The translations under genes were made by a program, and so were the position numbers. DNA of 64,000 bases, from contig CAVSSR010000010.1 in NCBI GenBank assembly GCA_963730615.1, positions 479-64,478 on the forward strand, in the 5' to 3' direction. This DNA is from an uncultured Bacteroidales bacterium (GTDB lineage: Bacteria; Bacteroidota; Bacteroidia; Bacteroidales; VadinHA17). Shown here one piece after another: positions 3,382 to 40,146 of this stretch (its first letter is position 1; every line of letters starts with the position of its first letter). The notes under the pieces were generated by a model. It had not been told where the DNA came from and did not search any database. It worked only from the letters and a program-made list of their open reading frames with translations.

Positions 3382-3450
3382 CAAAGGTTGATCCAGTGGT
3401 ACCAAAAAGTGTTACATAACACTGGAAATAAATTACATGATTCACACATT
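3382..3450 (-). promoter_or_regulatory. Composite promoter module P1 (drives mlaE-mlaF-mlaD-omp85-like)
   Basis: Transcribed-strand reading: AATGTGTGAATCATGTAAT-N15-TGTAAC-N21-AACCTTTG. The -7-like box lies 57 nt before the mlaE ATG. One of nine copies with the same architecture. Confidence 0.65.
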
Positions 3451-3504
3451 ACCCAGTGGCATTCCAAGGCTGCAGTATGTGACAGACTGGGTTGGCATCT
3501 TCCA

Positions 3505-3573
3505 AATGTGTGAATCATGTAACTCATTCCGGAAGTTGTGTAACACTTATCATCTGTCGGAACCCTACCTTTC
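3505..3573 (+). promoter_or_regulatory. Composite promoter module P2 (drives OmpA-like lipoprotein and porin-family gene)
   Basis: AATGTGTGAATCATGTAAC-N15-TGTAAC-N21-TACCTTTC. The box ends 54 nt before the ATG at 3627. It is back-to-back with P1. Confidence 0.65.
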
Positions 3574-3626
3574 GGAAAATATTAATAACTGAAAAACAGA
3601 TCATTAAACAATTAAATACATAAATT

Positions 3627-4299
3627 ATGAAACAGTTAAGAATTGGTTTGATCATGATCGTAAGTACGGTTCTGATTTTATCCGGCTGCGCATCGTGGAA
3701 TAAAACCCAGAAAGGGGCTGTTGTCGGAACTGCCGCAGGCGGTGCAATGGGCGCCGTAATTGGCAGAGCCTCAGGCAACACTGCCCTGGGTGCAATAATC
3801 GGAGCTACAGTCGGTGGTGCCACGGGTGCGGTTATTGGCCATCAGATGGACAAACAGGCTGAGGAAATAAAGAATACCGTTCCTGATGCAACGGTTGAAC
3901 GCGTGGGTGAAGGAATAATTGTGGAATTCAACAGCAACGTTCTGTTTGGATTTGATCGAGTCGAATCTTTCGGATGATGCTAAGATCAGCCTTGACAAAC
4001 TGGTGAAAGTCCTTAATTCTTATGCCGATACGGATATTGAAGTGCAGGGTCATACCGACAGTAAAGGCAGTGTATCGTATAACCAGGCCCTGTCTGAAAG
4101 ACGGGCTAATGCAGTAACGGCTTATCTGGATGGAAAAGGTATATCGGCCGGTCGTTTAACAATTAAGGGATTTGGCGAAACTGCCCCAAAATATGAAAAT
4201 AAAACAGCAGAAGGCCGTACCGGAAACCGCAGGGTTGAGTTTTTGATCACTGCAAATGAGAAGATGAAAGCTGAAGCTGCAAAAGAAGCAGGCAAATAA
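3627..4299 (+). CDS. OmpA-family lipoprotein with Gly-rich N-terminal region; reading frame broken once near 3954-3962
   Basis: ORFs 3627..3977 and 3919..4299 join as ...NSNVLFGFD|ESNLSDDAKISLDKL... The first has a lipobox LILSGC and a glycine zipper. The second has the OmpA C-terminal motifs GHTDSKGS..YNQALSERRA..V and NRRVEF. The span of 673 nt is 3n+1, so one extra base. Confidence 0.8.
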
Positions 4300-4348
4300 T
4301 AATAACTAAGGTGAAACAATAAACTGACAATATAAATACTACAAGAAA

Positions 4349-5042
4349 ATGAAAACGAAATTATTAACTATATCTGCAATCCTTCTTTTTTCAACACTGG
4401 CTCTGCAGGCCCAGATTGGCTTCGGTCTTCTGGGGGGTGTGAATTTCCAGAATATAAACGGAAAAGAAAGTAATGGCGATAAACTCGAAAATGGTCTTTT
4501 GGTAGGGTTTCACGCCGGAGTAAATGCTAATATCCCGGTGGCACCTGACTTCTATTTTCAGCCCGGGCTTCTGTTCTCTGTAAAAGGCGCCAGGAATAAC
4601 TTCTTTAACATGCCTGTCAAAGCATCAGGATGACAATTATAATACAACCACAAAGATTTCCTATATCGAAATTCCCCTGAGCTTTCTGTACAGGCCACAG
4701 GTTGGAAACGGACATGTACTCCTCGGGTTTGGTCCTTATATTGCCTTTGGCATTGGCGGCAACCAGAAGTTTGAAAGCGGAACTCTGGCTTATGAACAAA
4801 AAATTGCCTTCAAAAACGAGATTACAGAGAGCGATTTTTTTGACCTGGATAATGCATATTTCAGGCGGTTTGATGCAGGGGCAAATATTTTCTTCGGCTA
4901 TGAAATACCGATGGGGGTATTCCTGCAGCTGAATGCGCAGCTGGGCATGCTTAAGATAAACCCTGTACATTCATGGGATAGCGGGGATGAGACCTCGTAC
5001 AAGAATACAGGTTACGGCCTTTCAATAGGATACCGTTTTTAG
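4349..5042 (+). CDS. Porin-family outer-membrane beta-barrel protein; frame broken once near 4626-4630
   Basis: ORF 4349..4633 has a signal peptide ending ALQAQ. It continues in another frame from 4629 as DDNYNTTTKISYIEIPLSFLYRP...GYGLSIGYRF*, with the stop at 5040-5042 and a typical terminal aromatic residue. The span of 694 nt is 3n+1; deleting one g of the gg at 4628-4629 restores the frame. Confidence 0.75.
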
Positions 5043-5065
5043 CAAGGACTTTATATATCAAAAGG

Positions 5066-5095
5066 GGCCGTCACTGCAAAGTGACGGCCTTTTTT
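5066..5095 (+). terminator. Rho-independent terminator after the porin-family gene
   Basis: Stem GGCCGTCAC / GTGACGGCC with loop TGCAAA, followed by a T6 run. Confidence 0.8.
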
Positions 5096-5133
5096 ATATA
5101 TGGTGAAACCTGATCCGTAGCAATCATTTTTCC

Positions 5134-5201
5134 ATATGTGAATTATGTAATTCTTTCGTTGAAAGATGTAACTCTTTTTTTGGGAACAGGGCTCATCTTT
5201 G
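5134..5201 (+). promoter_or_regulatory. Composite promoter module P3 (drives ORF 5248)
   Basis: ATATGTGAATTATGTAAT-N15-TGTAAC-N21-CATCTTTG. The box ends 46 nt before the start at 5248. Confidence 0.6.
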
Positions 5202-5247
5202 TTAAGGGAATTAGAGCAGAAGTCTACTTAAATAAAATACCTAACCA

Positions 5248-5667
5248 GTGGATGAAAAAAACGTTATAATAACGAATCAAAGTATTAGTACAAACCTGAA
5301 CATCACAATCCGGTCAAGAGATGGTTCATCAGAGACCGGCAAGGCTAATGATGCTTTGTTTGCCGAAGGGGGACTGAACTTTTATAATTATATCAGACGG
5401 CTTGGCCTTGAAAGCGATCCTGATATAGTTGTTATTTCTTCCCTGCGCCATTTTTATTATGACGCTGAAGAAATGATTAAAGTTAAAGCCCTTGTGAACC
5501 TGACGGAACTCAACCAGGTTAAGCGGATTGTGGATTTTCTGCATACATGCTATCAGATTATGCCACAGAAGAGTTATTTAATCGGGTGTTTCGTTGATAA
5601 TAAGAAGATCCCCAGATACAGATTAAGAAACAACTCCGCCTCAACATATGTTCAAGAAAGATTTTGA
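5248..5667 (+). CDS. Hypothetical protein (GTG start), possibly truncated by frame errors
   Basis: 139-aa ORF directly downstream of module P3. I recognise no family with confidence. Confidence 0.5.
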   Translation: MDEKNVIITNQSISTNLNITIRSRDGSSETGKANDALFAEGGLNFYNYIRRLGLESDPDIVVISSLRHFYYDAEEMIKVKALVNLTELNQVKRIVDFLHTCYQIMPQKSYLIGCFVDNKKIPRYRLRNNSASTYVQERF

Positions 5668-5726
5668 CCCTATAGAATAGTGGTATTGTTTCAGCTGTTC
5701 CGTTTATCAACAGGTTATACAGCATA

Positions 5727-5864
5727 ATGGATTCAAGGACCAATACCTTCATGTCAAAGAGCAGTATTTCTTTTCTGCTTGAAGATTACGGATTTAAGGT
5801 ACTGGACATGACCGAACAGGACGAACTGACTTATTTCCAGGCACAAAAAGCCCGGGCCGCTTAG
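5727..5864 (+). CDS. Short ORF, probably the displaced C-terminal part of the 5248 gene
   Basis: 45-aa ORF MDSRTNTFMSKSSISFLLEDYGFKVLDMTEQDELTYFQAQKARAA. The same frame is open from 5684. Two single-base corrections between about 5660 and 5685 would fuse it to ORF 5248. Confidence 0.3.
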   Translation: MDSRTNTFMSKSSISFLLEDYGFKVLDMTEQDELTYFQAQKARAA

Positions 5865-5904
5865 AATTCTGCAGCCCAGGCTAAAATCAACTGAATACTA
5901 TTAA

Positions 5905-6114
5905 TTACTTTTTAAAAGGAACCAATAACATGACTCCCCCAACCGCCATTACGGCAACGCCGATAAGTGGCGACCAGCTAACGTGGTGACGCTTGTTTGC
6001 GTTGATCTCTATGTTCCCTAAGTCAACCACTTTCTCTCTTGTAAAGTAAGTAACGGTCGTAAAAATGGTCAAAATCAGACCAAGGATTAAAATGATGATA
6101 CCAGGTTTTTTCAT
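5905..6114 (-). CDS. Small two-TM membrane protein (69 aa), hypothetical
   Basis: Two hydrophobic helices (GIIILILGLILTIFTTV and LIGVAVMAVGGVMLLV). It has its own module, P4, 50 nt upstream. Confidence 0.6.
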   Translation of the reverse strand: MKKPGIIILILGLILTIFTTVTYFTREKVVDLGNIEINANKRHHVSWSPLIGVAVMAVGGVMLLVPFKK

Positions 6115-6163
6115 TTGATTCGTTTTTATGGTTTATTTTGTAAAATCACACCAAATTATTTGA

Positions 6164-6232
6164 TAAAGGTAGGTGGAACAGATGCTGTCAGTGTTACACA
6201 ACTACTACAGATAATTACATAATTCACACATT
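6164..6232 (-). promoter_or_regulatory. Composite promoter module P4 (drives small membrane protein 5905..6114)
   Basis: AAATGTGTGAATTATGTAAT-N15-TGTAAC-N21-TACCTTTA. Its distal end abuts the stop codon (6233-6235) of the upstream transporter gene. Confidence 0.65.
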
Positions 6233-7354
6233 TCAGGTTTTGGTTTTACCGCCCCCGGGAGTGTGTTTTTTAAAAGGTAATTTGATCTTAAGAGGAGATG
6301 GCATGGTATCTCCTAACAGGAAGCCCCAGGGCTTCAGAGGTTCGACGTGGTCACAGACAAGTTTTACAATGGCCAGCAGCGGTATGGAGATAAACATTCC
6401 GGGAATACCCCATATGGCATTGCCAACAAAAACTACCAGGAGTGAGAACAGTGCATTGAGTTTTACTTTTGAAGCAACTATTTTGGGAACGATGAAATTG
6501 TTGTCAATAAGCTGGATGATATAGTAGATCACCATAACATAAACGGGGTACCATGCAGATTCTTTTGTGATCAGGGCGACGATCATCGGCAATGCTACCG
6601 CAACTAATCCTCCTATGTAAGGAATGATATTCAGCAATGCGCCGATAATACCGAGCAGCAGAGCATATTCAATCCCGAGAGCCAGAAGAGCAACGGTGTT
6701 CAATGCAGCTATTATGCCAGCCTCAATAATCAGCCCGATAAGATATCGCTGAATAACTGTCTTTGTCTGAGTAACTATCTCGCTCACTTTGCTCTGGTTT
6801 CCTGAACTAAATATTCTATGAATAAACTCGATCAGGATCGGATTGTAAAACAAGAGCATAAAGACGTAAACCGGGATTAAAAAAATCACCACTAACAGGT
6901 TGCCGAGGGAGACAAGGGTGTTTCCGATCACAGCGCTGCTGGAATTAATAAGTTCACCCCGGACTTTTATAATCCAGTCATTTAACTTGTGAGAGTTTAT
7001 ATCGAAGTGGCCGGAAACCCAGGCGATGGCCTGGTTGAGCATCTCGCTGAATTTGTCTGCCAGCATGGGCAATGAATCACTTAAACGGCTTGCCTGCGAA
7101 ATGATAAGCGCACCAAATGCTGCTATGACCAGAAAGGTCAGGAACAGTGTTATGATGATTGCTAAAACTCTGTTGACTTTTTTCTCTACAAAGAAGTTTA
7201 CAACCGGATGAAGTACTATGGCTAAAATGGTTGCAAAAACCACAGGTACAAGGATGCTCCTCGCAATGTACAGCATTGTCAACAGAACAGCTATCCCGAT
7301 TAATAAAATGCTTGCCTTTACATACGCCGGAAGTTTCAGCCCTTCATTTGTCAT
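6233..7354 (-). CDS. AI-2E family transporter (PerM-like permease)
   Basis: 373-aa polytopic membrane protein with the typical AI-2E/UPF0118 layout. Confidence 0.75.
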   Translation of the reverse strand: MTNEGLKLPAYVKASILLIGIAVLLTMLYIARSILVPVVFATILAIVLHPVVNFFVEKKVNRVLAIIITLFLTFLVIAAFGALIISQASRLSDSLPMLADKFSEMLNQAIAWVSGHFDINSHKLNDWIIKVRGELINSSSAVIGNTLVSLGNLLVVIFLIPVYVFMLLFYNPILIEFIHRIFSSGNQSKVSEIVTQTKTVIQRYLIGLIIEAGIIAALNTVALLALGIEYALLLGIIGALLNIIPYIGGLVAVALPMIVALITKESAWYPVYVMVIYYIIQLIDNNFIVPKIVASKVKLNALFSLLVVFVGNAIWGIPGMFISIPLLAIVKLVCDHVEPLKPWGFLLGDTMPSPLKIKLPFKKHTPGGGKTKT

Positions 7355-7400
7355 GGCACCTGGATTGAAGTGTCACGGCTTCCGGATTTCAACTCTTTTC

Positions 7401-7772
7401 TTACGGAAAATACGGAGAAGCATAACTTCTCCCAGTGACCTGAGATTGCCGGATTGCTTTAGAGACAAAGTTAGTAACGCCGAGCTGTAAAACAGGACTG
7501 AGAAGTTTTCCAAACCTCATTGCGGTCACTCCTGGCAGTATACTCCTTGAAAGATACCCGGCACCTAAACCAAGGGCCGTTCCAAGGATGTTTTCAATCA
7601 GATTTGGCGATGAAGAAATATCATGTAATGTACTGCGGAGCAGACTGGCTGGTTTGAAACTTTCATAGGTGTTAACGAATTGCTCTTTCAACAGCTTTCT
7701 GTTGGCAGCCTTCTCTGCTTCCAGTAATTGAATTGCTTCTTTAAGGCCGGCTGTTGAAGTTATGTTTTGCAT
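7401..7772 (-). CDS. Hypothetical protein, third gene of the YtxH/holin-like cluster
   Basis: I use the ATG at 7772 (MQNITSTAGLKEAIQLLEAEK...). The longer ORF-track start overlaps the upstream gene. Confidence 0.55.
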   Translation of the reverse strand: MQNITSTAGLKEAIQLLEAEKAANRKLLKEQFVNTYESFKPASLLRSTLHDISSSPNLIENILGTALGLGAGYLSRSILPGVTAMRFGKLLSPVLQLGVTNFVSKAIRQSQVTGRSYASPYFP

Positions 7773-7779
7773 ACTGATT

Positions 7780-8133
7780 TTATTTAAGCACATGCCTGAT
7801 AATGTAATTGCCGACCTGTCTTTTGAGCCATTTATGCATAAAGAGACGTAAAACAAGAGTTGTGATCCCATAAAAAGCAGCTACCGCAAAAAAACCATAA
7901 TAGATATTACCAAGGATACCTCCCAGCCAGAAGGCAATGCCCAGGTTGACAAAAAGCATAAAAATCAAGGCCAGGACAATCACGATAAGATGAGGCACGA
8001 CTGTAGAAACAGCGTCCGATGTTTTATCAAGGACTTTAAGTTTAGCCAACTGAAGTTCCGTCTTGCCGTATTCAGTAACTTTCTCCAGCAGCTCCTCTAT
8101 GACTTTTACATTGTCTTCCATGCCCCTGGTCAT
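7780..8133 (-). CDS. Holin-X / phage-holin-family-like membrane protein
   Basis: 117 aa with an N-terminal amphipathic segment and two TM helices. It sits in the usual position after a YtxH gene. Confidence 0.6.
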   Translation of the reverse strand: MTRGMEDNVKVIEELLEKVTEYGKTELQLAKLKVLDKTSDAVSTVVPHLIVIVLALIFMLFVNLGIAFWLGGILGNIYYGFFAVAAFYGITTLVLRLFMHKWLKRQVGNYIIRHVLK

Positions 8134-8170
8134 AATATCATTAGTGATGATCTTATCCCCCTGACGGTTA

Positions 8171-8449
8171 TCAACCCGGAGCAGTCTTTGCTTTTTTGTC
8201 AGCCTCGTCTTTTGTCGTCTTGCCCTTATCAGTAAGATCAGTAACCTCTTCCTTTACATTTTCATATTTTTCAGATATGTCATCAAGAAACTGGTTGAAT
8301 TTTTCTTTCATTGATTCCTTCAGGTCATTTCCTTCTCCGGATAGCTTTTTTCGTGTTTCCGAGCCCTTTTCCGGGGCAAACAGAATCCCTAACACTGCAC
8401 CGGCAGCGACTCCGGCCAATAATGCCAATACTACTTTTCCTGAGCTCAT
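8171..8449 (-). CDS. YtxH domain-containing protein
   Basis: N-terminus VVLALLAGVAAGAVLGILFAPEKGSETRKKL is the YtxH signature. The C-terminal part is charged and helical. Confidence 0.85.
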   Translation of the reverse strand: MSSGKVVLALLAGVAAGAVLGILFAPEKGSETRKKLSGEGNDLKESMKEKFNQFLDDISEKYENVKEEVTDLTDKGKTTKDEADKKAKTAPG

Positions 8450-8470
8450 GATTTCTTTAATTTAATAAGC

Positions 8471-8560
8471 CCGCCCCGGATTATCCTGTTTTAAACCCCT
8501 TATATACTGATCAGTTTGTATTTCAGGTAGATGAAATGACACAGGAATTTTCCGGGGCGG
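8471..8560 (-). other. About 90-nt extended hairpin between the lmo0937-like gene and the YtxH gene
   Basis: A 10-bp GC stem (CCGCCCCGGA at 8471-8480 pairs with TCCGGGGCGG at 8551-8560) extends through CCTGT(8485-8489)/ACAGG(8541-8545). An inner TTTCA/TGAAA helix is also possible. Confidence 0.5.
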
Positions 8561-8589
8561 ACTTAATGATTACTAATAAAATGCTGGAT

Positions 8590-8745
8590 CTAGAGGATTC
8601 TTCTCCCCTGGATAACTCTCACTAAAACTGCAATGACTGCAATGACAAGCAGGATGTGTATCAGACCTCCGACATGGAACCCGATAAAGCCTACTGCCCA
8701 TGCAATGATCAGTATTACCGCAACTACATAAAGTAAATCTCTCAT
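8590..8745 (-). CDS. lmo0937-family small membrane protein (51 aa)
   Basis: Below the ORF-track size cut-off. Hand translation gives MRDLLYVVAVILIIAWAVGFIGFHVGGLIHILLVIAVIAVLVRVIQGRRIL, which matches the typical lmo0937/DUF5670 pattern. Confidence 0.8.
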   Translation of the reverse strand: MRDLLYVVAVILIIAWAVGFIGFHVGGLIHILLVIAVIAVLVRVIQGRRIL

Positions 8746-8763
8746 GATTTTGTTTTTTAATTT

Positions 8764-9093
8764 TTACAACAGAACGATTAACAGAATAAGAATAATAAGC
8801 AGTACGGCTGCTGAAATGTAAATGCCGCCACTTACTGCCTTAAGTTCACTGCTTATTGAACGAACTTCTTTTCGCAGCTCTTTCTTTTCTGACGCGGTCA
8901 GATCAGACTTGTCCGACGTCTTAATTTCGTTCAGCCTGAGCAGTAATTCGTTAGCTTTAGCAGCATCTGCAGGGCTTACGGGATTGGTGTTAGCCAATGA
9001 GGAAGGCTCGGTTTTGGGTGCAGCGCTTAATGAAAGTGGGATAAATGTCAATGACAACAATGTCGCCATTAAACAAAGAGCAAACTTTTTCAT
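8764..9093 (-). CDS. Hypothetical secreted, C-terminally anchored protein
   Basis: Signal peptide ending SLSAAP, a charged helical middle region and a C-terminal TM helix (IYISAAVLLIILILLIVLL). It is the first gene after module P5. Confidence 0.6.
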   Translation of the reverse strand: MKKFALCLMATLLSLTFIPLSLSAAPKTEPSSLANTNPVSPADAAKANELLLRLNEIKTSDKSDLTASEKKELRKEVRSISSELKAVSGGIYISAAVLLIILILLIVLL

Positions 9094-9173
9094 GATACCT
9101 GATTTTTTTTAGTATGACTTAATAGTTATTAATAATATCAATCTTGCTTTTAGTAATTAAAAGATTACAATGG

Positions 9174-9243
9174 TAAAATTACACCACCTGGTCTGGAAAA
9201 TCGTTACATGATTTTGGGATATTAATTACATAATTCACACATT
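9174..9243 (-). promoter_or_regulatory. Composite promoter module P5 (drives 8764..9093, the lmo0937-like gene and probably YtxH through the AI-2E gene)
   Basis: GAATGTGTGAATTATGTAAT-N16-TGTAAC-N21-TAATTTTA. The box lies 81 nt before the ATG at 9093. Confidence 0.6.
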
Positions 9244-9290
9244 CCATGAAATGTCAGCTACGGAATGCATGAGACAATGAATAAGTGGTT

Positions 9291-11045: not shown

Positions 11046-11051
11046 TGTAAT

Positions 11052-11765
11052 TCAAGCGGTTGCCTTCTTTTGCTTTAGTTTTTGTTTTAATGCAGTTTCG
11101 ACCAGCTTATGTTTGGCGATTTCATTCACCAGTTTTTTATTGGTTTTCTTTAATTTATTTATTTCTACTTCAAGATCAATCTTTTTATCAATAAGTTGCA
11201 TGCGCAAACGCTGTATTACATCTAATTTCTTTTCCAATAAGAGGGATAATTCAAGAAGCTTTTTTTCTTCCTTCTTCATTTCTGATATGTCAGTTGCTAC
11301 AAGTATGCAATAATCACCTTGCAGATAAGCAGGTAAAAGCTGAATGGATAGTTTCAGATATAATGAGTTGATCAGGGATACTATCAGAACATTATTTTTA
11401 TTATCAGTCTGTTGAGCAAGCAATTTATCAAATTTTGATTTATCATTCGGAACGATGAAACGCTTAAAGTATGAACCAATCACACGCTCAATTGGTTCGT
11501 GCACAAGTTCAGCAAATCTCTGATTACAATAGATAATTATACCTTCTCTGGAAAGAGTAACTGCTCCTTCGTTCATTTCTTCTATGAAAGTACGATATGG
11601 TGTTTCAGCAGAACTGATTGAATAGACTTGTTCTCCTTTCGTACCAGAAACCACAATCGCATCCACTTCACCGCTTCGAATTGCTGAAAGCGTTTCTTCA
11701 GTTTCAGCCAGGCGGGAATGTAATTCTTCATTCTCAATAATGAGTTGTTCTTTTGTTTTGGTCAT
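11052..11765 (-). CDS. PAS-domain protein flanked by coiled coils, with no recognisable output domain
   Basis: N-terminal coiled coil, a PAS-like core (EGAVTLSREGIIIYCNQRFAELV...) and a long Lys/Leu-rich C-terminal coiled coil. It is the last gene of the kai cluster. Confidence 0.7.
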   Translation of the reverse strand: MTKTKEQLIIENEELHSRLAETEETLSAIRSGEVDAIVVSGTKGEQVYSISSAETPYRTFIEEMNEGAVTLSREGIIIYCNQRFAELVHEPIERVIGSYFKRFIVPNDKSKFDKLLAQQTDNKNNVLIVSLINSLYLKLSIQLLPAYLQGDYCILVATDISEMKKEEKKLLELSLLLEKKLDVIQRLRMQLIDKKIDLEVEINKLKKTNKKLVNEIAKHKLVETALKQKLKQKKATA

Positions 11766-11810
11766 TGACGTTATTATAATAAATCAAATGTGCTAAAATT
11801 CCTGAAAATC

Positions 11811-12164
11811 TTACAGGTCTTTTACCTTTTTCAGGTCTAATCCCATAAGTACTTTTTCTTTGTTTGACATATCGCCAATAATACGACGGAATGGAAGCGG
11901 CAGTTTTTTAATCAATGTCGGGGCTGCAATTATCTGTTCATCTTTTGCCAAACTTGGCATTTGATACAGGTCAATCACTTCCAGTTCGTATCGCCCTTCA
12001 AGATATTCTTCGCAAATCTTTTTCAGGTTCGTAATGGCTAAGACCGATCGACTCGTTGTACCGGTTATGTATAAACGCAAAATATATTTGTCCTTGCCCG
12101 ATTCAGACATTGTCAGATCAAACTCTTTTGTTGATCCTTTTACTTTTGTTTTTTTCTCTTTCAT
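11811..12164 (-). CDS. kaiB: KaiB-family protein with Lys-rich N-terminal extension
   Basis: [74 protein letters not shown] is a clear KaiB pattern. Confidence 0.9.
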
Positions 12165-12195
12165 AATTATGACTGATAAATATTGTATTTATAAA

Positions 12196-12462
12196 TCAGC
12201 TGACAGGCAATAAATCCAATCCGACAAGAACACGTTCTGTATCTGAGAGATCACCTATTATCTTACGAACAGGTACCGGCAATTTTCTTACTAATGTTGG
12301 TAAGGCAAGAATCTGGTCCTCGTTACCCAACTGTGGATTTATCAAAAGGTCAATTACTTCAATGGAGTATTTCCCTTCTAATTGTTCTTCACATATTTTT
12401 TTCAGATTTGCAAATGCAGTAAGGGCTTTTGGAGATTGTCCTGCAACATATAAACGAAGCAC
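12196..12462 (-). CDS. kaiB: KaiB-family protein (GTG start as given; true start possibly the ATG at 12538, reached through a frame error)
   Basis: [72 protein letters not shown]. Confidence 0.9.
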
Positions 12463-12585
12463 CCACTTATCATTTGCCGTTATTAACCGGTTTTTCTTTT
12501 TTAATTTTTTTATCTGAATTTTCTTTCTTTGGTTTCATCGGATACTCGTTTTAATTATTTTTTCAATTTGCTGGTTGTACTATTT

Positions 12586-14290
12586 TTAATGATCAGCTTT
12601 TCTGCTTACTGCCATTTCTATTTTATCCTGTTCCAGTCGTTTAATCATGTCTTGTTCTGTTTCTATCATTTTAACAGCTTCGGATTCTTCCGACTCAAAA
12701 TCGGCATGCAATGAAGCAATCTGAGCTTCTAATGCCTTGCGTTTTCGTTCTAGTTCACGTTTTTTTCGTTCAATATCCTGCTTACGCGTCAACACTTCGG
12801 CATTTTCAAGAGCTTCCTGTGCAATACGGGCTGAGCCGGTTAAAACTCCACTGGCACCAATATAAACCTCACGTAATTCTACACCGTGGTCAGTTAAAAT
12901 GAATTCGCGAATCTGGTTAGAGTTAGCCATTCCGCGCGATTTAAGAACATACATTCCCCTGTTTCGTTCACCGTTTAATTCTATATCACGAAGTAATAAC
13001 CAGGTATCTATCAGTGATGATATTCCGACATCAGAACTCTCCAATGCGCTTTCGGTTGAAGTCAGGCTGGTAAACAATGCTGTTATTTGATTCGACTTAA
13101 GAAAATCGACAATACGCATTAACATCGTTTTTACTTCGATCTCTTTATCACCAATGACGAAAGTATTTATTGGATCCAGAATAACAATATCAGGTTTGAA
13201 AGCATTTACAGCTTTGTGAGTTACAGCCAGATGCATTTCCAGACCATAAAATGTTGGCCGGGTTGCCTGGAATTGTAAAAGTCCTTTCTGCACCCAGGGC
13301 TCTAATTTTATACCGATGGAAAGCATATTACGCATTAAGCTGGTTTGGAGATTCTTCGAAACAGAAATAAAGAACACGTTCACCTCTTTTACATGCTGCT
13401 TCTGCAAAGTGAGCTGCAACACTTGTTTTTCCTACTCCGGCAGTACCGGAAACAAGTACAGTGCTGCCGCGGTAATAACCTTTTCCTTCAAGCATTTTAT
13501 CAAGTGCAGTTATACCACTTGAGATTCTTTTGTTTGATACAATATGTTCTAATCCTAAGGAAGTTACAGGTAATACTGAAAAACCATTTTCATCAATCAG
13601 AAACGGATACTCATTGGTACCGTGCATTGAACCACGGTACTTTACAACCCGTAAACGACGTGTGGAAGTCTGTTCGGTTACACGATGGTCGAGCATAATA
13701 ACACAATCTGAAACATATTCTTCCAAACCCTGCCTGGTAAGAGTTTCTTCTCCACGCTCACCTGTTATGATTGCAGTAACACCTTTTTCTTTTAACCAGC
13801 GAAATAACCGCCGCAGTTCAGCGCGTAGGATCAGTTGGTTTGGCAATCCGGCAAACAGTGATTCAATAGTGTCCAAAACAACACGCTTTGCTCCAATAGA
13901 ATCAATTGCATAATCAAGGCGTATGAATAAACCTTCCAGATCGTATTCACCGGTTTCTTCTATTTCACTGCGCTCAATATGAACATGGTCAAGTGCAATT
14001 TTTTTATTTTTAATAAGGTCTTCCAGATCAAAACCCAGTGAAGCAACATTTTTGATTAATTCTTCATTGGTTTCTTCGAATGACATAAATACACCCGGTT
14101 CGTTAAACTGAGTTGCACCACGTACAAGAAACTCCATTCCAAAAAGTGTCTTTCCGCATCCTGCACCACCACATACGAGGGTTGGTCTGCCTGCTGGTAA
14201 TCCACCGCCTGTTATTTCATCAAATCCCTGAATTCCGGTGGGAGACTTGAGAAGATTTTTATTTACTGGTTTACGGTCTGCTTTTTTCAT
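12586..14290 (-). CDS. kaiC: KaiC-family double-domain ATPase with C-terminal coiled-coil tail; frame broken once near 13335
   Basis: ORFs 13328..14290 and 12586..13422 join as ...FEESPNQL|MRNMLSIGIKLEP... Walker A motifs: GGAGCGKT in the CI half and GTAGVGKT in the CII half. The span of 1705 nt is 3n+1; removing one t of the tt at 13335-13336 restores the frame. Confidence 0.9.
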
Positions 14291-14465
14291 TGATTATCAA
14301 TTAAATAAAGTCATATCAGATTATAGGCGATATGTTGCTAAACAACAAGTACTTAATTCCGGCCTTTTCTGGTCAGTATGATCCTCCAACCCTGGTCAAA
14401 GTCAATTATAATTCTGATCAGTCTTGTATTGTTAAAAAGCCAGACTACCCAGGTTAAACCTGACA

Positions 14466-14609
14466 CTAGGCTAATTTATAAATCAAATAAATAATAGAAC
14501 CCAATACTAAACATACGCACATTGAAAGGCTGTAGGCCATCAAAATGGCATATTTTAGCTTTGATCTGGCTTTCAAGTCCTCAGTAAATAAATCATCCCT
14601 TGTTTTCAT
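14466..14609 (-). CDS. Small membrane protein (47 aa), first cistron downstream of module P6
   Basis: Below the ORF-track cut-off. Base-by-base hand translation gives MKTRDDLFTEDLKARSKLKYAILMAYSLSMCVCLVLGSIIYLIYKLA with a TAG stop at 14466-14468. The ATG lies 44 nt after the -7 box, in the same range as the other modules. Confidence 0.5.
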   Translation of the reverse strand: MKTRDDLFTEDLKARSKLKYAILMAYSLSMCVCLVLGSIIYLIYKLA

Positions 14610-14652
14610 GATGATGGACAAAAACGGTTTAAAGTGATTCCAAATTACAATA

Positions 14653-14721
14653 CAAAGTTGAAATCCTTTACTCTGAGAAACTTTACAAAATTTCAGGAAA
14701 AAGTTACATCATTCACACATC
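14653..14721 (-). promoter_or_regulatory. Composite promoter module P6 (drives the small ORF and probably kaiC-kaiB-kaiB-PAS-M1 peptidase)
   Basis: AGATGTGTGAATGATGTAAC-N15-TGTAAA-N21-CAACTTTG. The distal end overlaps the stop codon (14713-14715) of the AraC-family gene. Confidence 0.6.
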
Positions 14722-15273
14722 TTCCAGAGCCCGGGGTTTTTTGTTCTTCAGTTTTTTAAACTGGGACGGAGTAAGCCCTGTCATTTTCCTGAACTGGTTT
14801 GAAAGGTGGGCTACACTGCTGTAGTGCAGTTTCCAGGCTATTTCGGTGAGATTAAGTTCATCATATATTAGCAGTTCCTTTACCTTTTCGATTTTGTGCG
14901 CCAGGTAAAACTTCTCAATGGTAACCCCCTTTACTTCTGAAAAAAGATTTCCCAGATAGGTGTAATTGTGATTGAGTTTTTGGCTCAGGTGGTCGGAAAG
15001 GTTTATTTTGATCTGCTCATCGGTATTATGCACCAGGTCAATGATGACTGCTTTTATTCTTTCAACCAGGATGTTCTTTTTGTCCTGCATCAGTTCAAGC
15101 CCGGTCTTTTTAAGTGCAATTGCGAGGTTTTCGCGCTGCTCCGGTGAAATATCCTCCGTTATTTCAGCTTCGCACAATTCAACTGATCCATAATGCAAAC
15201 CCGCCTTTTCCAGCTCCGATTTTACCAGCATTATGCAACGGAGGCTGACCATATTTTTGATGTAGAGTTTCAA
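14713..15273 (-). CDS. AraC-family transcriptional regulator
   Basis: C-terminal HTH region LTEIAWKLHYSSVAHLSNQFRKMTGLTPSQFKK, with a small N-terminal alpha/beta domain. Confidence 0.85.
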   Translation of the reverse strand: MKLYIKNMVSLRCIMLVKSELEKAGLHYGSVELCEAEITEDISPEQRENLAIALKKTGLELMQDKKNILVERIKAVIIDLVHNTDEQIKINLSDHLSQKLNHNYTYLGNLFSEVKGVTIEKFYLAHKIEKVKELLIYDELNLTEIAWKLHYSSVAHLSNQFRKMTGLTPSQFKKLKNKKPRALEDV

Positions 15274-15304
15274 TATGCCGGGTATACAGGGATAGTTACT
15301 TCTT

Positions 15305-15334
15305 CAAATTTAAGATTTTTTCTGAAAGACCAAA
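15305..15334 (-). promoter_or_regulatory. Canonical Bacteroidota sigma-A-type promoter of the AraC-family gene
   Basis: On the minus strand, TAAATTTG (plus-strand CAAATTTA at 15305-15312) lies 31 nt before the ATG. A TTTG (plus-strand CAAA at 15331-15334) lies 18 nt upstream. There is no TGTGAAT/TGTAAC module here. Confidence 0.4.
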
Positions 15335-15695
15335 GGCCGCTTGCCAGCCCCTGATCCAAAAATCCAGGATAGAAGCTTCCATGCACACCAGAATTATAAC
15401 ACCTATGTTCCCGCTATGTTTCTGACTTTAATAAAAATCGTATCCGATAACTCGATGATTGAGCCATACAGCCGCGCACTTCCCATGAGGTCCTGAGCCG
15501 CAAACAGAAATGTCCGGCGTAAGGATTTAAAAGCTGTAAAAATTCCTCCAAAAGAGAGAGTTATAACTTCTGTCTTCAGGAGGAACTACAAAGTCGATCT
15601 GTCATATGGTGTTGATATACCACCCGGGGAAAAAGATATCCTCGTTCTGGCAGGAAAGTTTAATGATATAAAAAATTCAGCGAAAGCTAGGGCTT

Positions 15696-16271
15696 TCAGA
15701 GTACTACCCTTGTATTATGGCCAAAAAGGTAAAACAGGCCAAACTGAATTCCCCTGTTGGTTGATTTTACTTCACTGCTTTTATTTATATCGTTTAATCC
15801 GTGATTATATCTCAGATCAAGACCAAACCCCGTTGAAGGAACCACATAGCTGACACCAACACTTAATGCAAAGTCAATGGGGTTATAATCATTCTCATTG
15901 TCTGAACTGACCAGGAAACCTACCTGTGGTCCGGCCTGTATTCTGAATCCGTTGTCAAACATATATTGAATCAGGACAGGTATATTAATATAACCCAGAT
16001 TATAATTTTTTGCACCCTGGGCGGAATATACAAGTTCAGGCTGAATTGCCCACTGACTGTTGCGGTGGATATGGCCAAGCAAACCAAAATTATAACCTGT
16101 TCTCTGGTCATAACTGGTATTGTTGTCATTGTGAATGTTATAAAAATTCAGCCCGCCCTTAATTCCAAGGGTTACGTGTCCTGCAGGTGCATTGCCGTGC
16201 TGTGCACTGACAACACCCGTTATCATAATTGCTGTAATTAATCCGATCAGAAATTTCATAGCTTTTTTCAT
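15696..16271 (-). CDS. Porin-family outer-membrane beta-barrel protein
   Basis: Signal peptide MKKAMKFLIGLITAIMITGVVSAQ, beta-strand-rich sequence and a C-terminal ...FGLFYLF-type motif. The ORF-track start at 16325 lies too close to the -7 box of P7, so I use the ATG at 16271. Confidence 0.75.
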   Translation of the reverse strand: MKKAMKFLIGLITAIMITGVVSAQHGNAPAGHVTLGIKGGLNFYNIHNDNNTSYDQRTGYNFGLLGHIHRNSQWAIQPELVYSAQGAKNYNLGYINIPVLIQYMFDNGFRIQAGPQVGFLVSSDNENDYNPIDFALSVGVSYVVPSTGFGLDLRYNHGLNDINKSSEVKSTNRGIQFGLFYLFGHNTRVVL

Positions 16272-16328
16272 TTGTTTATTATTAGTTTTCGATATCACCT
16301 TTTTCATTAAGGAGCTTATAATCAACTG

Positions 16329-16397
16329 TAAAGGTGCGGGTTATTTATTGACGGAATGTTACATAATTGTATATACTTATTACATAATTCACGGATC
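16329..16397 (-). promoter_or_regulatory. Composite promoter module P7 (drives porin-family gene 15696..16271)
   Basis: GATCCGTGAATTATGTAAT-N15-TGTAAC-N21-CACCTTTA. It is back-to-back with P8. Confidence 0.6.
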
Positions 16398-16417
16398 AGA
16401 ATGGGATTGAAGAAAGT

Positions 16418-16484
16418 CCTGTGAATTATGTAATTATGTTGATGAAAAGTGTAACGGTTCCGCTGGCTTAGCTGCCTACCTTTG
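16418..16484 (+). promoter_or_regulatory. Composite promoter module P8 (drives small membrane protein 16550..16774)
   Basis: CCTGTGAATTATGTAAT-N15-TGTAAC-N21-TACCTTTG. The box ends 65 nt before the ATG at 16550. Confidence 0.6.
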
Positions 16485-16549
16485 CTTTGTTGAAGGGCAC
16501 CTCCCGCAATAACAATTAATGCAAAAAATAAACTTATAAGGAGAAAATC

Positions 16550-16774
16550 ATGAGCACAAGAAGAGACAGAAGAATAATCTACTATTTAATTGCAGCTGCA
16601 GTTATTATTATTGCCTTCCTGTTTGTTAGGCGGTGCATCCTGGATGAAAGGGATGGGACATGGCAACGGTTCAATGGGTACGGTCAGTTTACACTGGGGA
16701 CAGATTCTGATCAGCCTGGGTCTGGGGTTTCTGCTCGGGTGGATAGTCTCCAAAAGGAAATGGTGATTGTCTGA
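16550..16774 (+). CDS. Small single-TM membrane protein (74 aa), hypothetical
   Basis: MSTRRDRRIIYYLIAAAVIIIAFLFVRR..., with its own module P8. Confidence 0.55.
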   Translation: MSTRRDRRIIYYLIAAAVIIIAFLFVRRCILDERDGTWQRFNGYGQFTLGTDSDQPGSGVSARVDSLQKEMVIV

Positions 16775-16787
16775 TTACCTTCAGACT

Positions 16788-18413
16788 TCAAATGGGCAGG
16801 TCTTTAAAAATTACTTCAGACCTGCCAATCGAGTCTTCCATTTTCTTATTGCCGTCAGCCAGGGTTGAAGTAATTCCTGAAAGAATAGATCTGAAGCAGT
16901 AATGCAAAACAGATCTTTCAGGGTCTCTTATATAATCTATTGTACCCTCTCTGACGTCTCCCCCCTGTACAGGGTTTGAATCTGGTATTCTTCTGTTAGC
17001 TATATAAGAGACAAATCTTTCTCTGAATGCTGTTGTATCATCAGTCTGTTTGTTCTTAACAGCGATGTCCAGTCCATGATAAAGCATGATCATTTTGCCT
17101 GTTGCCTTGTCATTATTTGCAATGAAGCTGAAACTCAATGCATCGATTTTGCCGGAAGTGGCATAAATAAAGGCATTTTTCTCAAGGATTGGATTTAACT
17201 CAGTAACGTTCAGGCCTGATAGAGTTCCTTCAAGTGAAAATATATTATTACTGTCAAATATTCTCTCTTTTAAATGAACGGCCATCTTTCCTTTGCCCAT
17301 TAACAGGGCATCAGCCTTGATTTCTAAAAAACCTTTTTCTGTTTTGTAGCTGGTGTCATTTGTTAATTTGTAAAGGCTGGCATTGATTTCATTAAATCTT
17401 ACAATTCCTGGCTCGTTTGCCTCTTCAGCATGTACTGTAAAAGTTACATTCCCTTTCATAAGAATTATTGAATCAATCAGGAAGTTGTGGGGAAAGTCGT
17501 AAAGGATATCCTGAAAGGCGGGTTTATTCAAATGCCGGAACTCTTCTCTCTTATCACGAAAAACTTTCATGTCCATTTGCCCGATCTCTATATACGGACT
17601 TCTGAGGCTCATTGATCTGAGATAAGCTTCGGAATCGAAATCGTAAACATAAATGTCGGTTAAGGCAACTTCGATACGGTTCGTTTGGAATGCATGTCTC
17701 GATGTGAAATCATAGTTTGTGTAATTCGGGCGAACAAAAAGGCTGTCTATGAACAAAGTGTTCACATTGGCAGGATAGCTGACCCCCTTTACCACATAAG
17801 AATACATTTTGTCAGACGAAACCAGCATGAGTTCCCGGGCTTTGAAATCAAACAGCTTAATGGTACCGGGGAGTAAAGTATCCATCTTCCCGACCTGCAA
17901 ATCGTATACTTTCAGCATCCCATCCTTTACTGAATAAGTCTGCCCCGTTGAATCGTCTTCCAATTCCAGGTTCAGTTTATCAAACAGGATTCTGCCTATG
18001 CCAAGACTTATGGGTGAAACTACCGGTTGTGTTGCTCTGCCCGAAAATGGAAATTTACCGTTAATAATGCTATTGGAAAAGTTTACTTTATTAATATAAA
18101 TATCATGTTTAAATATTGCTCTGGGGAGGTTGATGCCTGTCAACTTTACAGACGCTATCTCACCGATTAAATCGCGGTCTACTCCATTCTCCGGATTTGA
18201 AAATATTGTCATTCCTGTCAGTTTTATCCCTGACTTGATAATCAAAATATTAACCTTATCTATTTCAACGATGTAATTTCTTGCTTCTTTATTCAATTCT
18301 GACCGTATTTTTCCCCCGATCCAGGGCTCAATAAAAATTCTGGTTATAATTTCTACCAGCAACAAAAGAGTACACGCTGCAACAAATATTTTTAAAATTA
18401 TTTTCTTCCGCAT
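16788..18413 (-). CDS. Large membrane-anchored hypothetical protein (possibly AsmA/DUF748-like)
   Basis: 541 aa with an N-terminal TM anchor followed by a beta-rich region. The family assignment is only an impression from the N-terminal region. Confidence 0.5.
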   Translation of the reverse strand: MRKKIILKIFVAACTLLLLVEIITRIFIEPWIGGKIRSELNKEARNYIVEIDKVNILIIKSGIKLTGMTIFSNPENGVDRDLIGEIASVKLTGINLPRAIFKHDIYINKVNFSNSIINGKFPFSGRATQPVVSPISLGIGRILFDKLNLELEDDSTGQTYSVKDGMLKVYDLQVGKMDTLLPGTIKLFDFKARELMLVSSDKMYSYVVKGVSYPANVNTLFIDSLFVRPNYTNYDFTSRHAFQTNRIEVALTDIYVYDFDSEAYLRSMSLRSPYIEIGQMDMKVFRDKREEFRHLNKPAFQDILYDFPHNFLIDSIILMKGNVTFTVHAEEANEPGIVRFNEINASLYKLTNDTSYKTEKGFLEIKADALLMGKGKMAVHLKERIFDSNNIFSLEGTLSGLNVTELNPILEKNAFIYATSGKIDALSFSFIANNDKATGKMIMLYHGLDIAVKNKQTDDTTAFRERFVSYIANRRIPDSNPVQGGDVREGTIDYIRDPERSVLHYCFRSILSGITSTLADGNKKMEDSIGRSEVIFKDLPI

Positions 18414-18436
18414 GATATGGCATTATAGTCAGAGGT

Positions 18437-18504
18437 CAAAACTATTACACCCTGACTTCAAAACTTTACACAATTCAATAAATGATTTACATCATTCACG
18501 CATT
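18437..18504 (-). promoter_or_regulatory. Composite promoter module P9 (drives 16788..18413)
   Basis: TAATGCGTGAATGATGTAAA-N15-TGTAAA-N20-TAGTTTTG. The box lies 24 nt before the ATG at 18413. Confidence 0.55.
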
Positions 18505-40073: not shown

Positions 40074-40146
40074 CACGGGAGGAGAGACTCGAACTCCCGA
40101 CACCTGGTTTTGGAGACCAGTGCTCTACCAACTGAGCTACACCCGT
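40074..40146 (-). tRNA. tRNA-Trp (anticodon CCA)
   Basis: The 73-nt sequence was folded by hand: D arm GCTC/GAGC, anticodon stem CTGGT/ACCAG with loop CTCCAAA, T arm GGGAG-TTCGAGT-CTCTC. CCA is not encoded. Confidence 0.9.

Follow-up and report, generated by a model that had tools for sequence, protein, structure and literature searches.

The window, a 64-kb stretch from an uncultured Bacteroidales bacterium, carries in its first 18.5 kb exactly nine copies of a composite module of the form (AATGT)GTGAATnATGTAAY-N15-TGTAAM-N21-nAnCTTTG, against a chance expectation of 0. The modules and associated genes are listed below, with scores from a PWM that was built from other genomes.

P1 module, 3382..3450, minus strand: PWM 67.9; upstream of an mlaE-mlaF-mlaD-like operon (3325 down to 950; Pfam MlaE, ABC_tran and MlaD)
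P2 module, 3505..3573, plus strand: PWM 62.7; divergent from P1
Genes downstream of P2, plus strand: Gly-zipper/OmpA-like gene, 3627-4299, split by a frameshift; OMP beta-barrel fragment, 4349-4633
P3 module, 5133..5201, plus strand: PWM 51.9; precedes a 139-aa protein of unknown function (5248-5667)
P4 module, 6164..6232, minus strand: PWM 55.4; precedes a 69-aa two-TM membrane protein (6114-5905)
P5 module, 9174..9243, minus strand: N16 spacer; heads an operon running from 9093 down to 6233
P5 operon, 9093 down to 6233, minus strand: 109-aa membrane protein, DUF5670, YtxH, holin-X-like protein, 156-aa protein, AI-2E transporter
P6 module, 14653..14721, minus strand: PWM 66.6; the TGA stop codon of the candidate regulator lies inside its GTGAAT block
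Genes downstream of P6, 14609 down to 9291, minus strand: 47-aa ORF, kaiC, kaiB, kaiB, PAS protein, M1 peptidase
kaiC and two kaiB genes, 11814..14290, minus strand: kaiC with one frameshift near 13337
Candidate regulator, 14713..15273, minus strand: 186 aa; identified from Pfam HTH_18, AF2, Foldseek and co-occurrence with the motif
P7 module, 16329..16397, minus strand: PWM 43.5; heads an OMP beta-barrel gene (16307-15696)
P8 module, 16416..16484, plus strand: PWM 43.0; precedes a 74-aa ORF (16550-16774)
P9 module, 18437..18504, minus strand: PWM 39.3; N20 second spacer; precedes a 541-aa membrane-anchored protein of unknown function (18413-16788)

P7 and P8 stand back-to-back with 18 bp between them, and P7 probably also drives the regulator gene, which lies downstream of its OMP beta-barrel gene. 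Searches of Pfam and NCBIfam gave no match for the 139-aa protein linked to P3. The small membrane protein that follows P4 is also found downstream of the motif in other genomes, and an operon of the P5 type lies behind the motif at four further loci (L057, L024, L090 and L121), the last of which belongs to a relative with an intact kaiC-kaiB-kaiB.

Detection and rigidity of the modules

The pattern GTGAATNATGTAAH-N15/16-TGTAAM-N24/25-TTT gave ten regex matches representing nine distinct sites, at 3445(-), 3510(+), 5138(+), 6227(-), 9238(-), 14716(-), 16392(-), 16421(+) and 18499(-), and zero matches in 100 dinucleotide shuffles of the window. When the 64 kb were scanned with the PWM, eight of the sites scored 39-68 and P5 scored 9.3; the next-best position reached -5.4 and the shuffle maximum was 3.8, a bimodal separation, and the scan revealed no weaker copy at other positions of the window and no further one past 18.5 kb. 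These results bear out an earlier note on this DNA, which had counted nine copies, all in the first 18.5 kb, and none in the intergenic regions from there to 64 kb, and its module coordinates match the spans recomputed here. Its range of 24-81 nt for the distance from the last box to the start codon becomes 21-80 nt.

At both spacer exceptions, P5 (N16) and P9 (N20), a homopolymer differs in length from its counterpart in a close relative, where the spacers are N15 and N21. In the same assembly, rpoB is split into two ORFs. Taken together, the homopolymer differences and the split rpoB suggest that the exceptions may be 1-bp indel errors, and that the module may be fully rigid.

A phylum-wide, oriented direct repeat

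Within a collection of species-representative genomes, we found the full pattern in at least 120 genome stretches, nearly all from Bacteroidota, where roughly 1-2 chance hits were estimated. The module is phylum-wide in Bacteroidota and not specific to the source genome, and no description of it was located in the literature or in family libraries. In these other genomes, only 2 of 131 instances lay inside long ORFs versus 75% of random positions, and an ORF started 10-150 nt downstream in 85% of instances, a figure that fell to 18% when the opposite direction was read and to 35% for random positions. Box and ATG were separated by a median of 38 nt.

The earlier note had taken the blocks to be protein-binding sites held at fixed spacing to form a promoter, and had named copies inside genes or in random orientation as the sign of a mobile repeat. 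Since the instances are intergenic and oriented toward gene starts, and since their spacers vary while their blocks are conserved across classes of the phylum, the promoter interpretation is supported, and the MITE reading was rejected computationally. More broadly, the many copies within a short interval would suit a repeat that is mobile or selfish, an RNA element, or a module targeted by RNA-guided transcription through dCas12f-sigmaE, and RNA-guided transcription systems do exist in Bacteroidota (PMC13472631). Such systems, however, need a linked rpoE-dcas12f, act without a conserved promoter box and mainly target susCD, none of which applies here, and the only Rfam matches were tRNAs located elsewhere; we regard this whole group of explanations as barely credible.

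The architecture of the module is nearly constant in other genomes. All of 136 instances have a first spacer of 15 nt; of 117 second spacers, 99 measure 21 nt, 16 measure 20 nt and 2 measure 22 nt. The contrast between unconserved spacers and near-invariant blocks, first drawn within the window, also holds across the phylum. As loci L001-L120 were chosen by the motif itself, their logos are biased at the forced positions, and the logo was therefore repeated on loci chosen without the motif. The blocks form a direct repeat phased at 21 bp, of which the proximal copy, standing in place of the -33 element, matches just the 11 bp at the downstream end of the 20-bp distal block. They never occur separately: the distal block was present at 250 of 289 sites with the proximal block and box, the remaining 39 being near the chance count of 22-32, and TGTAA followed at N15/16 after 263 of 267 exact distal blocks.

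The last block had been equated with the sigma-A -7 box, TAnnTTTG. That assignment stands for the A and the TTT(G), which alone are strongly conserved at the corresponding positions, and fails for the first T (34-40% T) and for position 4, where a C is conserved at 64-84%. With the -7 box of Bacteroidota promoters numbered -12 to -5 (PMC9723704), the placement of TGTAAC at the -33 position also holds. Compared with the canonical Bacteroidota sigma-A promoter (-33 TTTG / -7 TAnnTTTG; PMC9723704, PMC7366714), the module thus shares A + TTTG at the expected distance from the start codon, but differs in the box positions just described, lacks the -33 TTTG and has forty more conserved base pairs upstream.

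The departure of the box from TAnnTTTG leaves room for a different sigma factor. TGTAAC and nAnCTTTG could be recognised, as -35-like and -7-like elements respectively, by an alternative sigma factor whose gene lies elsewhere, for example a sigma-A paralog or an atypical ECF, with the distal block an obligatory upstream site for an AraC-type protein or for the same holoenzyme. The -35 elements of ECF sigma factors contain AAC, which TGTAAC resembles, and general stress regulons known elsewhere are sigma-driven. Nevertheless, about 200 loci contained no recurrent gene for a sigma or anti-sigma factor, a conserved -10 element of the CGT type is absent 16-17 nt past TGTAAC, and the box retains the Bacteroidota-specific TTTG at the sigma-A distance. 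Sites that have the proximal block and box but lack the distal one are about as rare as expected by chance, and the proximal block copies the distal one at 21-bp phasing, which suggests that the same protein binds both. An alternative sigma factor is therefore unlikely, in our judgment.

The candidate regulator and its linkage to the motif

The 186-aa protein encoded at 14713-15273, inside the 3382-18504 interval delimited by the earlier note, belongs to a family of 179-190 aa in which an HMA-like N-domain is fused to a MarA/AraC-type domain with two HTH motifs. It matches Pfam HTH_18, its N-domain has the HMA-like loop M-V-[C/S]-x-R-C, and its AF2 model has a pLDDT of 92. Using Foldseek, we found that the C-terminal domain superposes on the DNA-binding domains of MarA, SoxS, AdpA, YesN and AraC, and that the N-domain matches the HMA folds of Atx1/GolB. 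Members of the family show no variation in the HTH helices, which parallels the invariance of the motif.

Of 120 motif-anchored loci, each up to 8 kb long, 25 contained a full-length ortholog with 50-75% identity. Reciprocally, 69 of 80 regulator-anchored metagenome loci had a motif site; over 404 kb the count was 117 sites, compared with 0 in shuffled sequence. In L195 and L197, both of them long regulator loci, no site lies within about 6 kb. A same-strand site followed the regulator gene in 45 of 73 loci, and in 33 of those GTGAAT overlapped the stop codon. In 17 of 240 cases the gene immediately following a site was that of the regulator. A same-strand site lay at most 500 nt upstream of only 12 of 65 regulator genes, which suggests that autoregulation is frequent but not universal. 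This co-localisation fits both a regulator of the regulon and a conserved member of it.

Across about 200 motif or regulator loci no other DNA-binding family recurred, and the only other regulatory proteins were histidine kinases and a 143-aa receiver. The enrichment of these two near the motif would suit a different transcription factor encoded elsewhere, for example a LytTR-type response regulator, that binds the repeats and has the HMA-AraC protein only as a conserved target; LytTR sites are direct repeats with a 21-bp period, as here. Yet the loci contain no recurrent response regulator that has a DNA-binding output: the receiver that is conserved consists of one domain only, and the kinase cluster's proteins of 190-230 aa comprise kinase fragments, CheB-like proteins and one NtrC fragment. 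Given also that the stop codon joins the AraC-type gene to the site in so many loci, we find a separate binder decidedly unlikely.

A putative activator-dependent promoter

Our data suggest that the module is probably the docking site of this previously unnamed AraC-type regulator from the same gene cluster, acting as an activator-dependent promoter. According to this model, each ~68-bp module would be a promoter of the Bacteroidota type whose box nAnCTTTG (about -12 to -5 from the predicted transcription start) serves as the -7 element contacted by RNA polymerase. The proximal copy ARTTRTGTAAC (about -44 to -34) would take the place of the absent -33 TTTG. The distal copy AAATGTGTGAATnATGTAAC (about -73 to -55) is the stronger of the two and lies upstream by exactly 21 bp, equal to two turns of the helix. 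Two subunits of the regulator, the putative binder, each with two helix-turn-helix motifs, would occupy both repeats on one face of the DNA. As the proximal repeat is only 11 of 20 bp, two identical subunits would be expected to make unequal contacts. Contact with RNA polymerase would come from the proximal subunit, in the manner of class II activation by AraC at I1-I2 of araBAD, and in many genomes the regulator may switch on its own expression. The regulator may respond to a thiol or metal through the invariant Cys13 and/or take its signal from a linked PAS hybrid kinase with the single-domain receiver, in whose stead KaiBC and a PAS protein may act here.

The same sites could instead be operators at which the AraC-type protein or another factor silences otherwise constitutive promoters until stress, and the overlap of the proximal site with the core promoter is a typical repressor position too. 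However, lack of a -33 element and a sub-consensus -7 box are typical of activator dependence, the distal site would be superfluous for simple occlusion, and MarA/SoxS/AraC-type domains at such a proximal position and with direct-repeat geometry are usually activators. We consider repression improbable.

The proposed activation by the AraC-type regulator has a close precedent in AraC itself. I1 and I2 are known to form a direct repeat of 21-bp spacing whose proximal half-site covers the -35 equivalent, and in both systems the two half-sites share one helical face of a promoter without a good upstream hexamer. The putative binder likewise joins the two-HTH domain of the AraC family to a small N-domain with a possible role in dimerisation or sensing. 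In contrast, its N-domain has an HMA-like ferredoxin fold rather than a cupin, the core promoter is of the Bacteroidota -7 type, no looping O2-type site was seen with the module, and the module serves a dispersed, phylum-wide regulon instead of one catabolic operon. The marbox of MarA/SoxS/Rob in Enterobacteria is also an asymmetric box of ~20 bp for a two-HTH AraC-type domain, strictly oriented and spaced to the core promoter ahead of dispersed stress and envelope genes, and MarA and SoxS complexes are among the regulator's closest structural matches; the marbox, though, is degenerate, single and monomer-bound, whereas the module hardly varies and has two copies of its site, 21 bp apart, that are obligately coupled. 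PM2 of B. thetaiotaomicron (PMC7366714) is another non-canonical Bacteroidota promoter motif at stress and stationary-phase genes. Judged by its description it is near-palindromic with -10 and -30 elements, unlike a direct repeat that extends to about -73 and has a -7-type box.

The genes downstream of the module across genomes form a stress and envelope-maintenance set: CsbD, YtxH, OmpA/Gly-zipper, cupin, DUF5670, Usp, MlaEFD and AI-2E proteins, with KaiBC added in the window. CsbD, YtxH, Usp, OmpA/Gly-zipper and small membrane proteins, linked PAS histidine kinases with a single-domain receiver, and positive autoregulation, which is predicted for the module system, recall the general stress regulons of Firmicutes (sigma-B) and Alphaproteobacteria (sigma-EcfG/PhyR) and that of sigma-S. 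Those are sigma-factor switches, whereas the conserved partner of the module is a transcription factor and its box is sigma-A-like; the stress role of the module system is read from gene content. In the window KaiBC are members of this regulon, and in the source lineage they may possibly provide feedback or input to it.

Architecture and distribution of the module

Nine distinct module copies (P1–P9) were recovered from the window with a derived regular expression, all of them below 18.5 kb, versus none in 100 dinucleotide-preserving shuffles. This agrees with the nine copies described in the earlier note, including their coordinates and their distances to start codons (box to start, 21–80 nt). 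Using a position weight matrix (PWM) built solely from sites in other genomes, eight of the sites scored 39–68 and P5 scored 9.3; the best shuffle score was 3.8, and the next-best position anywhere in the 64 kb scored −5.4. The gap between 9.3–68 and −5.4 indicates that there are exactly nine copies and no degenerate ones, and that, as had been claimed, none lies beyond 18.5 kb. The copies and the genes that they are predicted to drive are as follows.

Module copies and the regulator gene in the window
P1, minus strand: mlaE-mlaF-mlaD-like genes
P2, plus strand: Gly-zipper/OmpA lipoprotein and OMP beta-barrel
P3 and P8, plus strand, and P4 and P9, minus strand: small or uncharacterised membrane proteins
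P5, minus strand: 109-aa protein, DUF5670, YtxH, holin-X-like protein, 156-aa protein and AI-2E transporter
P6, minus strand: 47-aa ORF, kaiC, two kaiB, PAS protein and M1 peptidase
P7, minus strand: OMP beta-barrel, then the regulator gene
Regulator gene, 14713–15273, minus strand: between P7 and P6

Read toward the downstream gene, P1–P9 align without gaps except for one additional base in spacer 1 of P5, which separates the distal block (GTGAATnATGTAAY) from the proximal TGTAAM, and, in P9, a spacer 2 (between TGTAAM and the nAnCTTTG box) that is one base short. These spacers, N16 and N20, are the sole deviations in the window, and both coincide with homopolymer-length differences from a close relative (L121), in which they are N15 and N21. 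P5 is alone among more than 250 instances in having an N16 spacer 1.

The full three-block pattern was then scanned in one genome per species across 185,579 species, for which the chance expectation was estimated at approximately 1–2 matches. At least 120 genome stretches matched, and all but two of the matches listed carry a Bacteroidota label. Carriers among the matches listed include the environmental Bacteroidales groups Prolixibacteraceae, Marinilabiliaceae, Paludibacter, Lentimicrobiaceae and Rikenellaceae, together with Chitinophagaceae, Saprospiraceae, Flavobacteriaceae, Cytophagales and Sphingobacteriales. Anchored on TGTAAM, 136 instances gave the consensus aAATGTGTGAATnATGTAAcTtwTt....a.A(a/g)TT(g/a)TGTAACA..tt, followed by approximately 18 unconserved positions and nA(c)CTTTG. 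As those loci had been selected with the motif itself, a second logo was built from 117 sites near regulator genes, in loci that were not motif-selected and with up to 3 mismatches allowed; the picture was unchanged.

Outside the window, spacer 1 always measures 15 nt; of the 117 sites, 99 have a spacer 2 of 21 nt, 16 one of 20 nt and 2 one of 22 nt. AATnATGTAAC, which makes up the final 11 bp of the distal block, recurs downstream as the direct repeat ARTTRTGTAAC, and the two are exactly 21 bp apart in 136/136 and 117/117 instances. In 1.3 Mb of fetched sequence, TGTAA followed at N15/16 after 263 of the 267 exact distal blocks, and the distal block was present at 250 of the 289 sites with a proximal block plus box. 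The remaining 39 come close to the number given by shuffles (22–32), and the same 1.3 Mb thus holds no promoter class with TGTAAC and the box alone beyond about chance level. The distal block, the proximal block and the box are one unit.

GC content steps from ~0.40 to ~0.48–0.50 at 18.5 kb. A recently acquired island was considered for the low-GC block and rejected, since L121 (87–90% nucleotide identity) has the same cluster, with orthologs of P3–P9, between the same flanking genes; the block is a regulon cluster with a stable place in the chromosome. Elsewhere the window carries core housekeeping sequence, with rpoB, rpoC and a cluster of five tRNAs (40074–41890) that adjoins ribosomal and RNA-polymerase genes and is ordinary. 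Several genes in the window are broken: rpoB is split into two ORFs (33193–37004), a single frameshift interrupts kaiC (12586–14290) near 13337, the Gly-zipper/OmpA gene (3627–4299) is split, the OMP beta-barrel gene is truncated (4349–4633) and the gene behind P3 (5248–5262) has an out-of-frame ATG beside an A7 run. As the essential rpoB is affected and KaiC of L121 is intact at 577 aa, these are probably assembly indel errors rather than pseudogenes. Short intergenic tandem repeats unrelated to the module also occur: GCGATTT x12 at 47941–48033 (alternatively a 38-bp unit x2.4), AATTCTT x4.6 at 48091–48122, the related TAATTCT x3.9 ~4 kb away at 52065–52091, and arrays of 8-nt units at 44585–44720, upstream of an Omp85/POTRA gene.

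Promoter-like character of the sites

Placement was evaluated for the 131 instances with enough flanking sequence, using ORFs of at least 120 aa for overlap and ATG-initiated ORFs of at least 50 aa for downstream starts. Only 2/131 instances lie inside ORFs, versus 75% of random positions. An ATG-initiated ORF starts 10–150 nt downstream of 112 instances (85%), versus 23 (18%) in the opposite direction and 35% of random positions, and the median distance from the end of the box to the ATG is 38 nt. The earlier note had argued against a mobile repeat, citing unconserved spacers, and had asked how copies lie in other genomes. The spacers are indeed unrelated between window copies, and, with the intergenic placement and strong orientation bias, this excludes a MITE or other mobile repeat. 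An Rfam scan of the whole window returned the five tRNAs only, with no riboswitch or leader match at the module. Targets of RNA-guided transcription through dCas12f with sigmaE are marked by linked rpoE-dcas12f and a guide RNA, a 5'-G TAM with complementarity over ~20 bp, and a lack of conserved core promoter elements (PMC13472631). This reading was rejected, since no such genes recur near the motif in the loci examined and the box is strongly conserved.

The last block had been taken for the Bacteroidota sigma-A −7 box, TAnnTTTG, and this holds in part. The A (90–99%), the TTT (84–100%) and, less strictly, the G (64%) are retained; position 1 is T in only 34–40% and position 4 is C in 64–84%. 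In the 117 sites, A takes position 2 in 99% and C takes position 4 in 84%, the TTT is conserved at 97–100%, and position 1 is more often C (45%) than T (34%). When the box is numbered −12 to −5, as in PMC9723704, TGTAAC falls at −39 to −34, which upholds the proposal that it stands in place of the −33 TTTG. No TTTG is found 19–21 nt upstream of the box, where the module holds TGTAAC, and the conserved TT(G/A) a little further upstream is 27 nt from the box. None of the motifs SM1–SM6 in the F. psychrophilum start-site map (PMC9723704) resembles the module, and the B. thetaiotaomicron PM2 promoter, described as near-palindromic with −10 and −30 elements (PMC7366714), differs from it in architecture.

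The departure of the box from the textbook TAnnTTTG makes it possible that an alternative sigma factor reads this promoter. Against this, TTTG is kept, no sigma gene is among the recurrent neighbours, and the proximal block without the distal block occurs only near chance level. ECF promoters pair an AAC-containing −35 with a CGT-type −10 found 16–17 nt later and have a linked sigma/anti-sigma pair; this reading was rejected, as information content nowhere exceeds 0.5 bit at +16 to +24 after TGTAAC, and there is thus no CGT-type −10.

A linked candidate regulator family of the AraC type

All ORFs of the 120 motif-anchored loci were clustered without preselection. Among these 120 loci only two regulatory families recur: histidine kinases (31 loci) and a ~185-aa AraC-type protein (25 loci), represented in the window by the 186-aa candidate regulator. 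The 25 copies are full-length orthologs with 50–75% identity, from Bacteroidales to Chitinophagaceae, Saprospiraceae and Cyclobacteriaceae. In the reciprocal direction, 80 metagenome loci were fetched by the regulator protein. A strict regular expression found the motif in 29/80, an underestimate; a mismatch-tolerant scan found at least one module site in 69/80, amounting to 117 sites in 404 kb versus 0 in shuffles. A same-strand site follows the regulator gene in 45 of 73 loci from unrelated metagenomes, and in 33 of those 45 the TGA stop codon of the regulator lies inside the GTGAAT of the motif, as at P6, where the two overlap at 14713–14721 (...GAT GTG TGA AT). This overlap in 33/73 loci suggests that the coding sequence, with its C-terminal ...D/N-V/M, and the putative binding site constrain each other. 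Upstream of the regulator, same-strand sites occur within 500 nt in 12/65 loci and divergent sites in 11/65.

The AlphaFold model of the regulator, which is confident (pLDDT 92), pairs an N-terminal beta-alpha-beta-beta-alpha-beta domain with seven helices in the C-terminal domain. Foldseek matched the C-terminal half to the DNA-binding domains of YesN, AraT, AdpA, MarA, SoxS, Rob and AraC, and the N-terminal 65 residues to the HMA metallochaperone folds Atx1, GolB and TTHA1718 (TM ~0.66). Both HTH recognition helices are invariant in the regulator alignment. The HMA-like loop reads M-V-[C/S/T]-x-R-C; its second Cys is invariant in 109/109 orthologs, and at its first variable position 50 orthologs have Cys, 57 (the window protein among them) Ser and 2 Thr. 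A search with the N-domain alone against 1.84 billion representatives returned 227 proteins at E <= 1e-10. As the full-length ones are ~180–190 aa, the two-domain architecture is fixed. Pfam annotates the regulator with HTH_18 only, its database names are generic, and neither Pfam nor NCBIfam holds a specific model for the regulator or its N-domain. In L096 and L098, a more divergent copy (~50% identity in L096) is in an operon with a heavy-metal P-type ATPase, which fits a metal-related ancestry of the HMA-like putative sensor domain.

The geometry of the sites has a known counterpart in AraC bound at I1-I2 of araBAD, where the half-sites are likewise phased by ~21 bp and the proximal one lies over the −35-equivalent. 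As at class II AraC/XylS-type sites, the module is linked to a two-HTH AraC-family protein (HTH_18, fold matches, 25/120 loci listed and 69/80), and a single MarA-type two-HTH domain reads an asymmetric site of ~20 bp, the size of the distal block. We therefore propose a model in which everything from binding onward is inferred. With the box at −12 to −5 and TGTAAC at −39 to −34, the distal block would span ~−73 to −55, and the proximal repeat (~−44 to −34) would occupy the position of the −33 TTTG, with both repeats on one helical face. Two regulator subunits would bind in tandem on the repeats, with the proximal subunit bringing RNA polymerase to a promoter whose −7 box is sub-consensus and which lacks a −33 element. 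Activation would be strengthened by frequent positive autoregulation. The window has two divergent back-to-back promoter pairs, P1/P2 (3382–3573) and P7/P8 (16329–16484), with distal blocks ~55 bp and ~18 bp apart, respectively; the spacing at P7/P8 would bring two regulator complexes almost side by side. Repression through these sites is less likely, given the weakness of the core promoter. An unlinked transcription factor, for instance one of the LytTR type, would also suit the 21-bp period but finds no genomic support, as no such regulator recurs in the loci examined.

Downstream genes and signalling partners

Pooling first-downstream proteins from all loci (n = 240), the most frequent families were a small cupin (30), DUF5670 (20), the regulator (17), a coiled-coil OmpA protein (14), and CsbD, an ice-binding-like protein with a T9SS tail and a 106–109-aa membrane protein (13 each), followed by OMP beta-barrel, MlaE, YtxH and Usp. 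Two of these, CsbD and YtxH, belong to the classical general-stress proteins of sigma-B, and the gene set therefore looks like a stress and envelope regulon, with stress induction suggested by gene content (CsbD, YtxH, Usp, OmpA and DUF5670). The stand-alone cupin (~116 aa; L032, L087, L114, L139 and others; 30/240) is the most frequent gene behind the promoter that overlaps the regulator stop codon, and is absent from the window. In classical AraC the cupin sensor is within the same polypeptide; a separate cupin and regulator could be a split version of this arrangement. Between P6 and kaiC, a hydrophobic ORF of 47–51 aa (14466–14621), ~320 nt upstream of the kaiC start and not called as a gene in L121, could encode a small membrane protein or merely be part of a long leader.

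In many genomes the motif is followed by the regulator, a PAS hybrid histidine kinase (with HisKA, HATPase, REC and HPt domains) and a 143-aa receiver, in that order. The regulator-kinase-receiver operon is conserved in L013, L019, L030, L058, L065, L036 and L102; the receiver ends in LSWYMERM, and the kinase has up to ~10 tandem copies of the 20-aa repeat NKELAFQNxEKEKRAAEL. The kinase cluster also contains shorter proteins, namely kinase fragments, CheB-like proteins, one NtrC fragment and the 143-aa single receiver domain, which is highly conserved. Response regulators with a DNA-binding output do not recur in the loci examined. The window encodes neither the hybrid kinase nor the receiver. 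There, and in L121 and L108, kaiC is next after the regulator, followed by kaiB and a PAS protein.

These data confirm and extend the observation of nine modules. As a class of mechanism, AraC-type class II activator sites are already well known. New is the combination of a near-invariant, phylum-wide module and an unnamed HMA-like/AraC regulator family with kinase/receiver or KaiBC linkage and a stress-type regulon, in a phylum for which, to our knowledge, no counterpart of the general stress switches sigma-B, sigma-S or EcfG is defined. We found none in the literature searched, nor a description of the module there (a corpus without most subscription journals, such that a prior report is possible) or in Rfam, Pfam or NCBIfam. 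We tentatively propose, as a possibility that we hold to be somewhat short of an even chance, that the module and regulator are the general stress master switch of Bacteroidota: a transcription factor rather than a sigma factor, sensing through the invariant Cys of a metallochaperone-like domain, and wired, in most lineages, to a phosphorelay made up of a PAS hybrid kinase with a single-domain receiver and, in this one, to a KaiC-KaiB timer.

Bacteroidota dominate soils, sediments, oceans and guts, and a search pattern with almost no false positives makes this putative regulon readable from any Bacteroidota genome or metagenome. It comes with a named candidate regulator, a putative sensor residue (Cys13) and a candidate signalling chain of hybrid kinase, 143-aa receiver and KaiBC. 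The module would also be a clean example of an activator substituting for the −33 element at the Bacteroidota promoter, itself unusual, and would supply genetic tools for this phylum with tightly defined inducible promoters.
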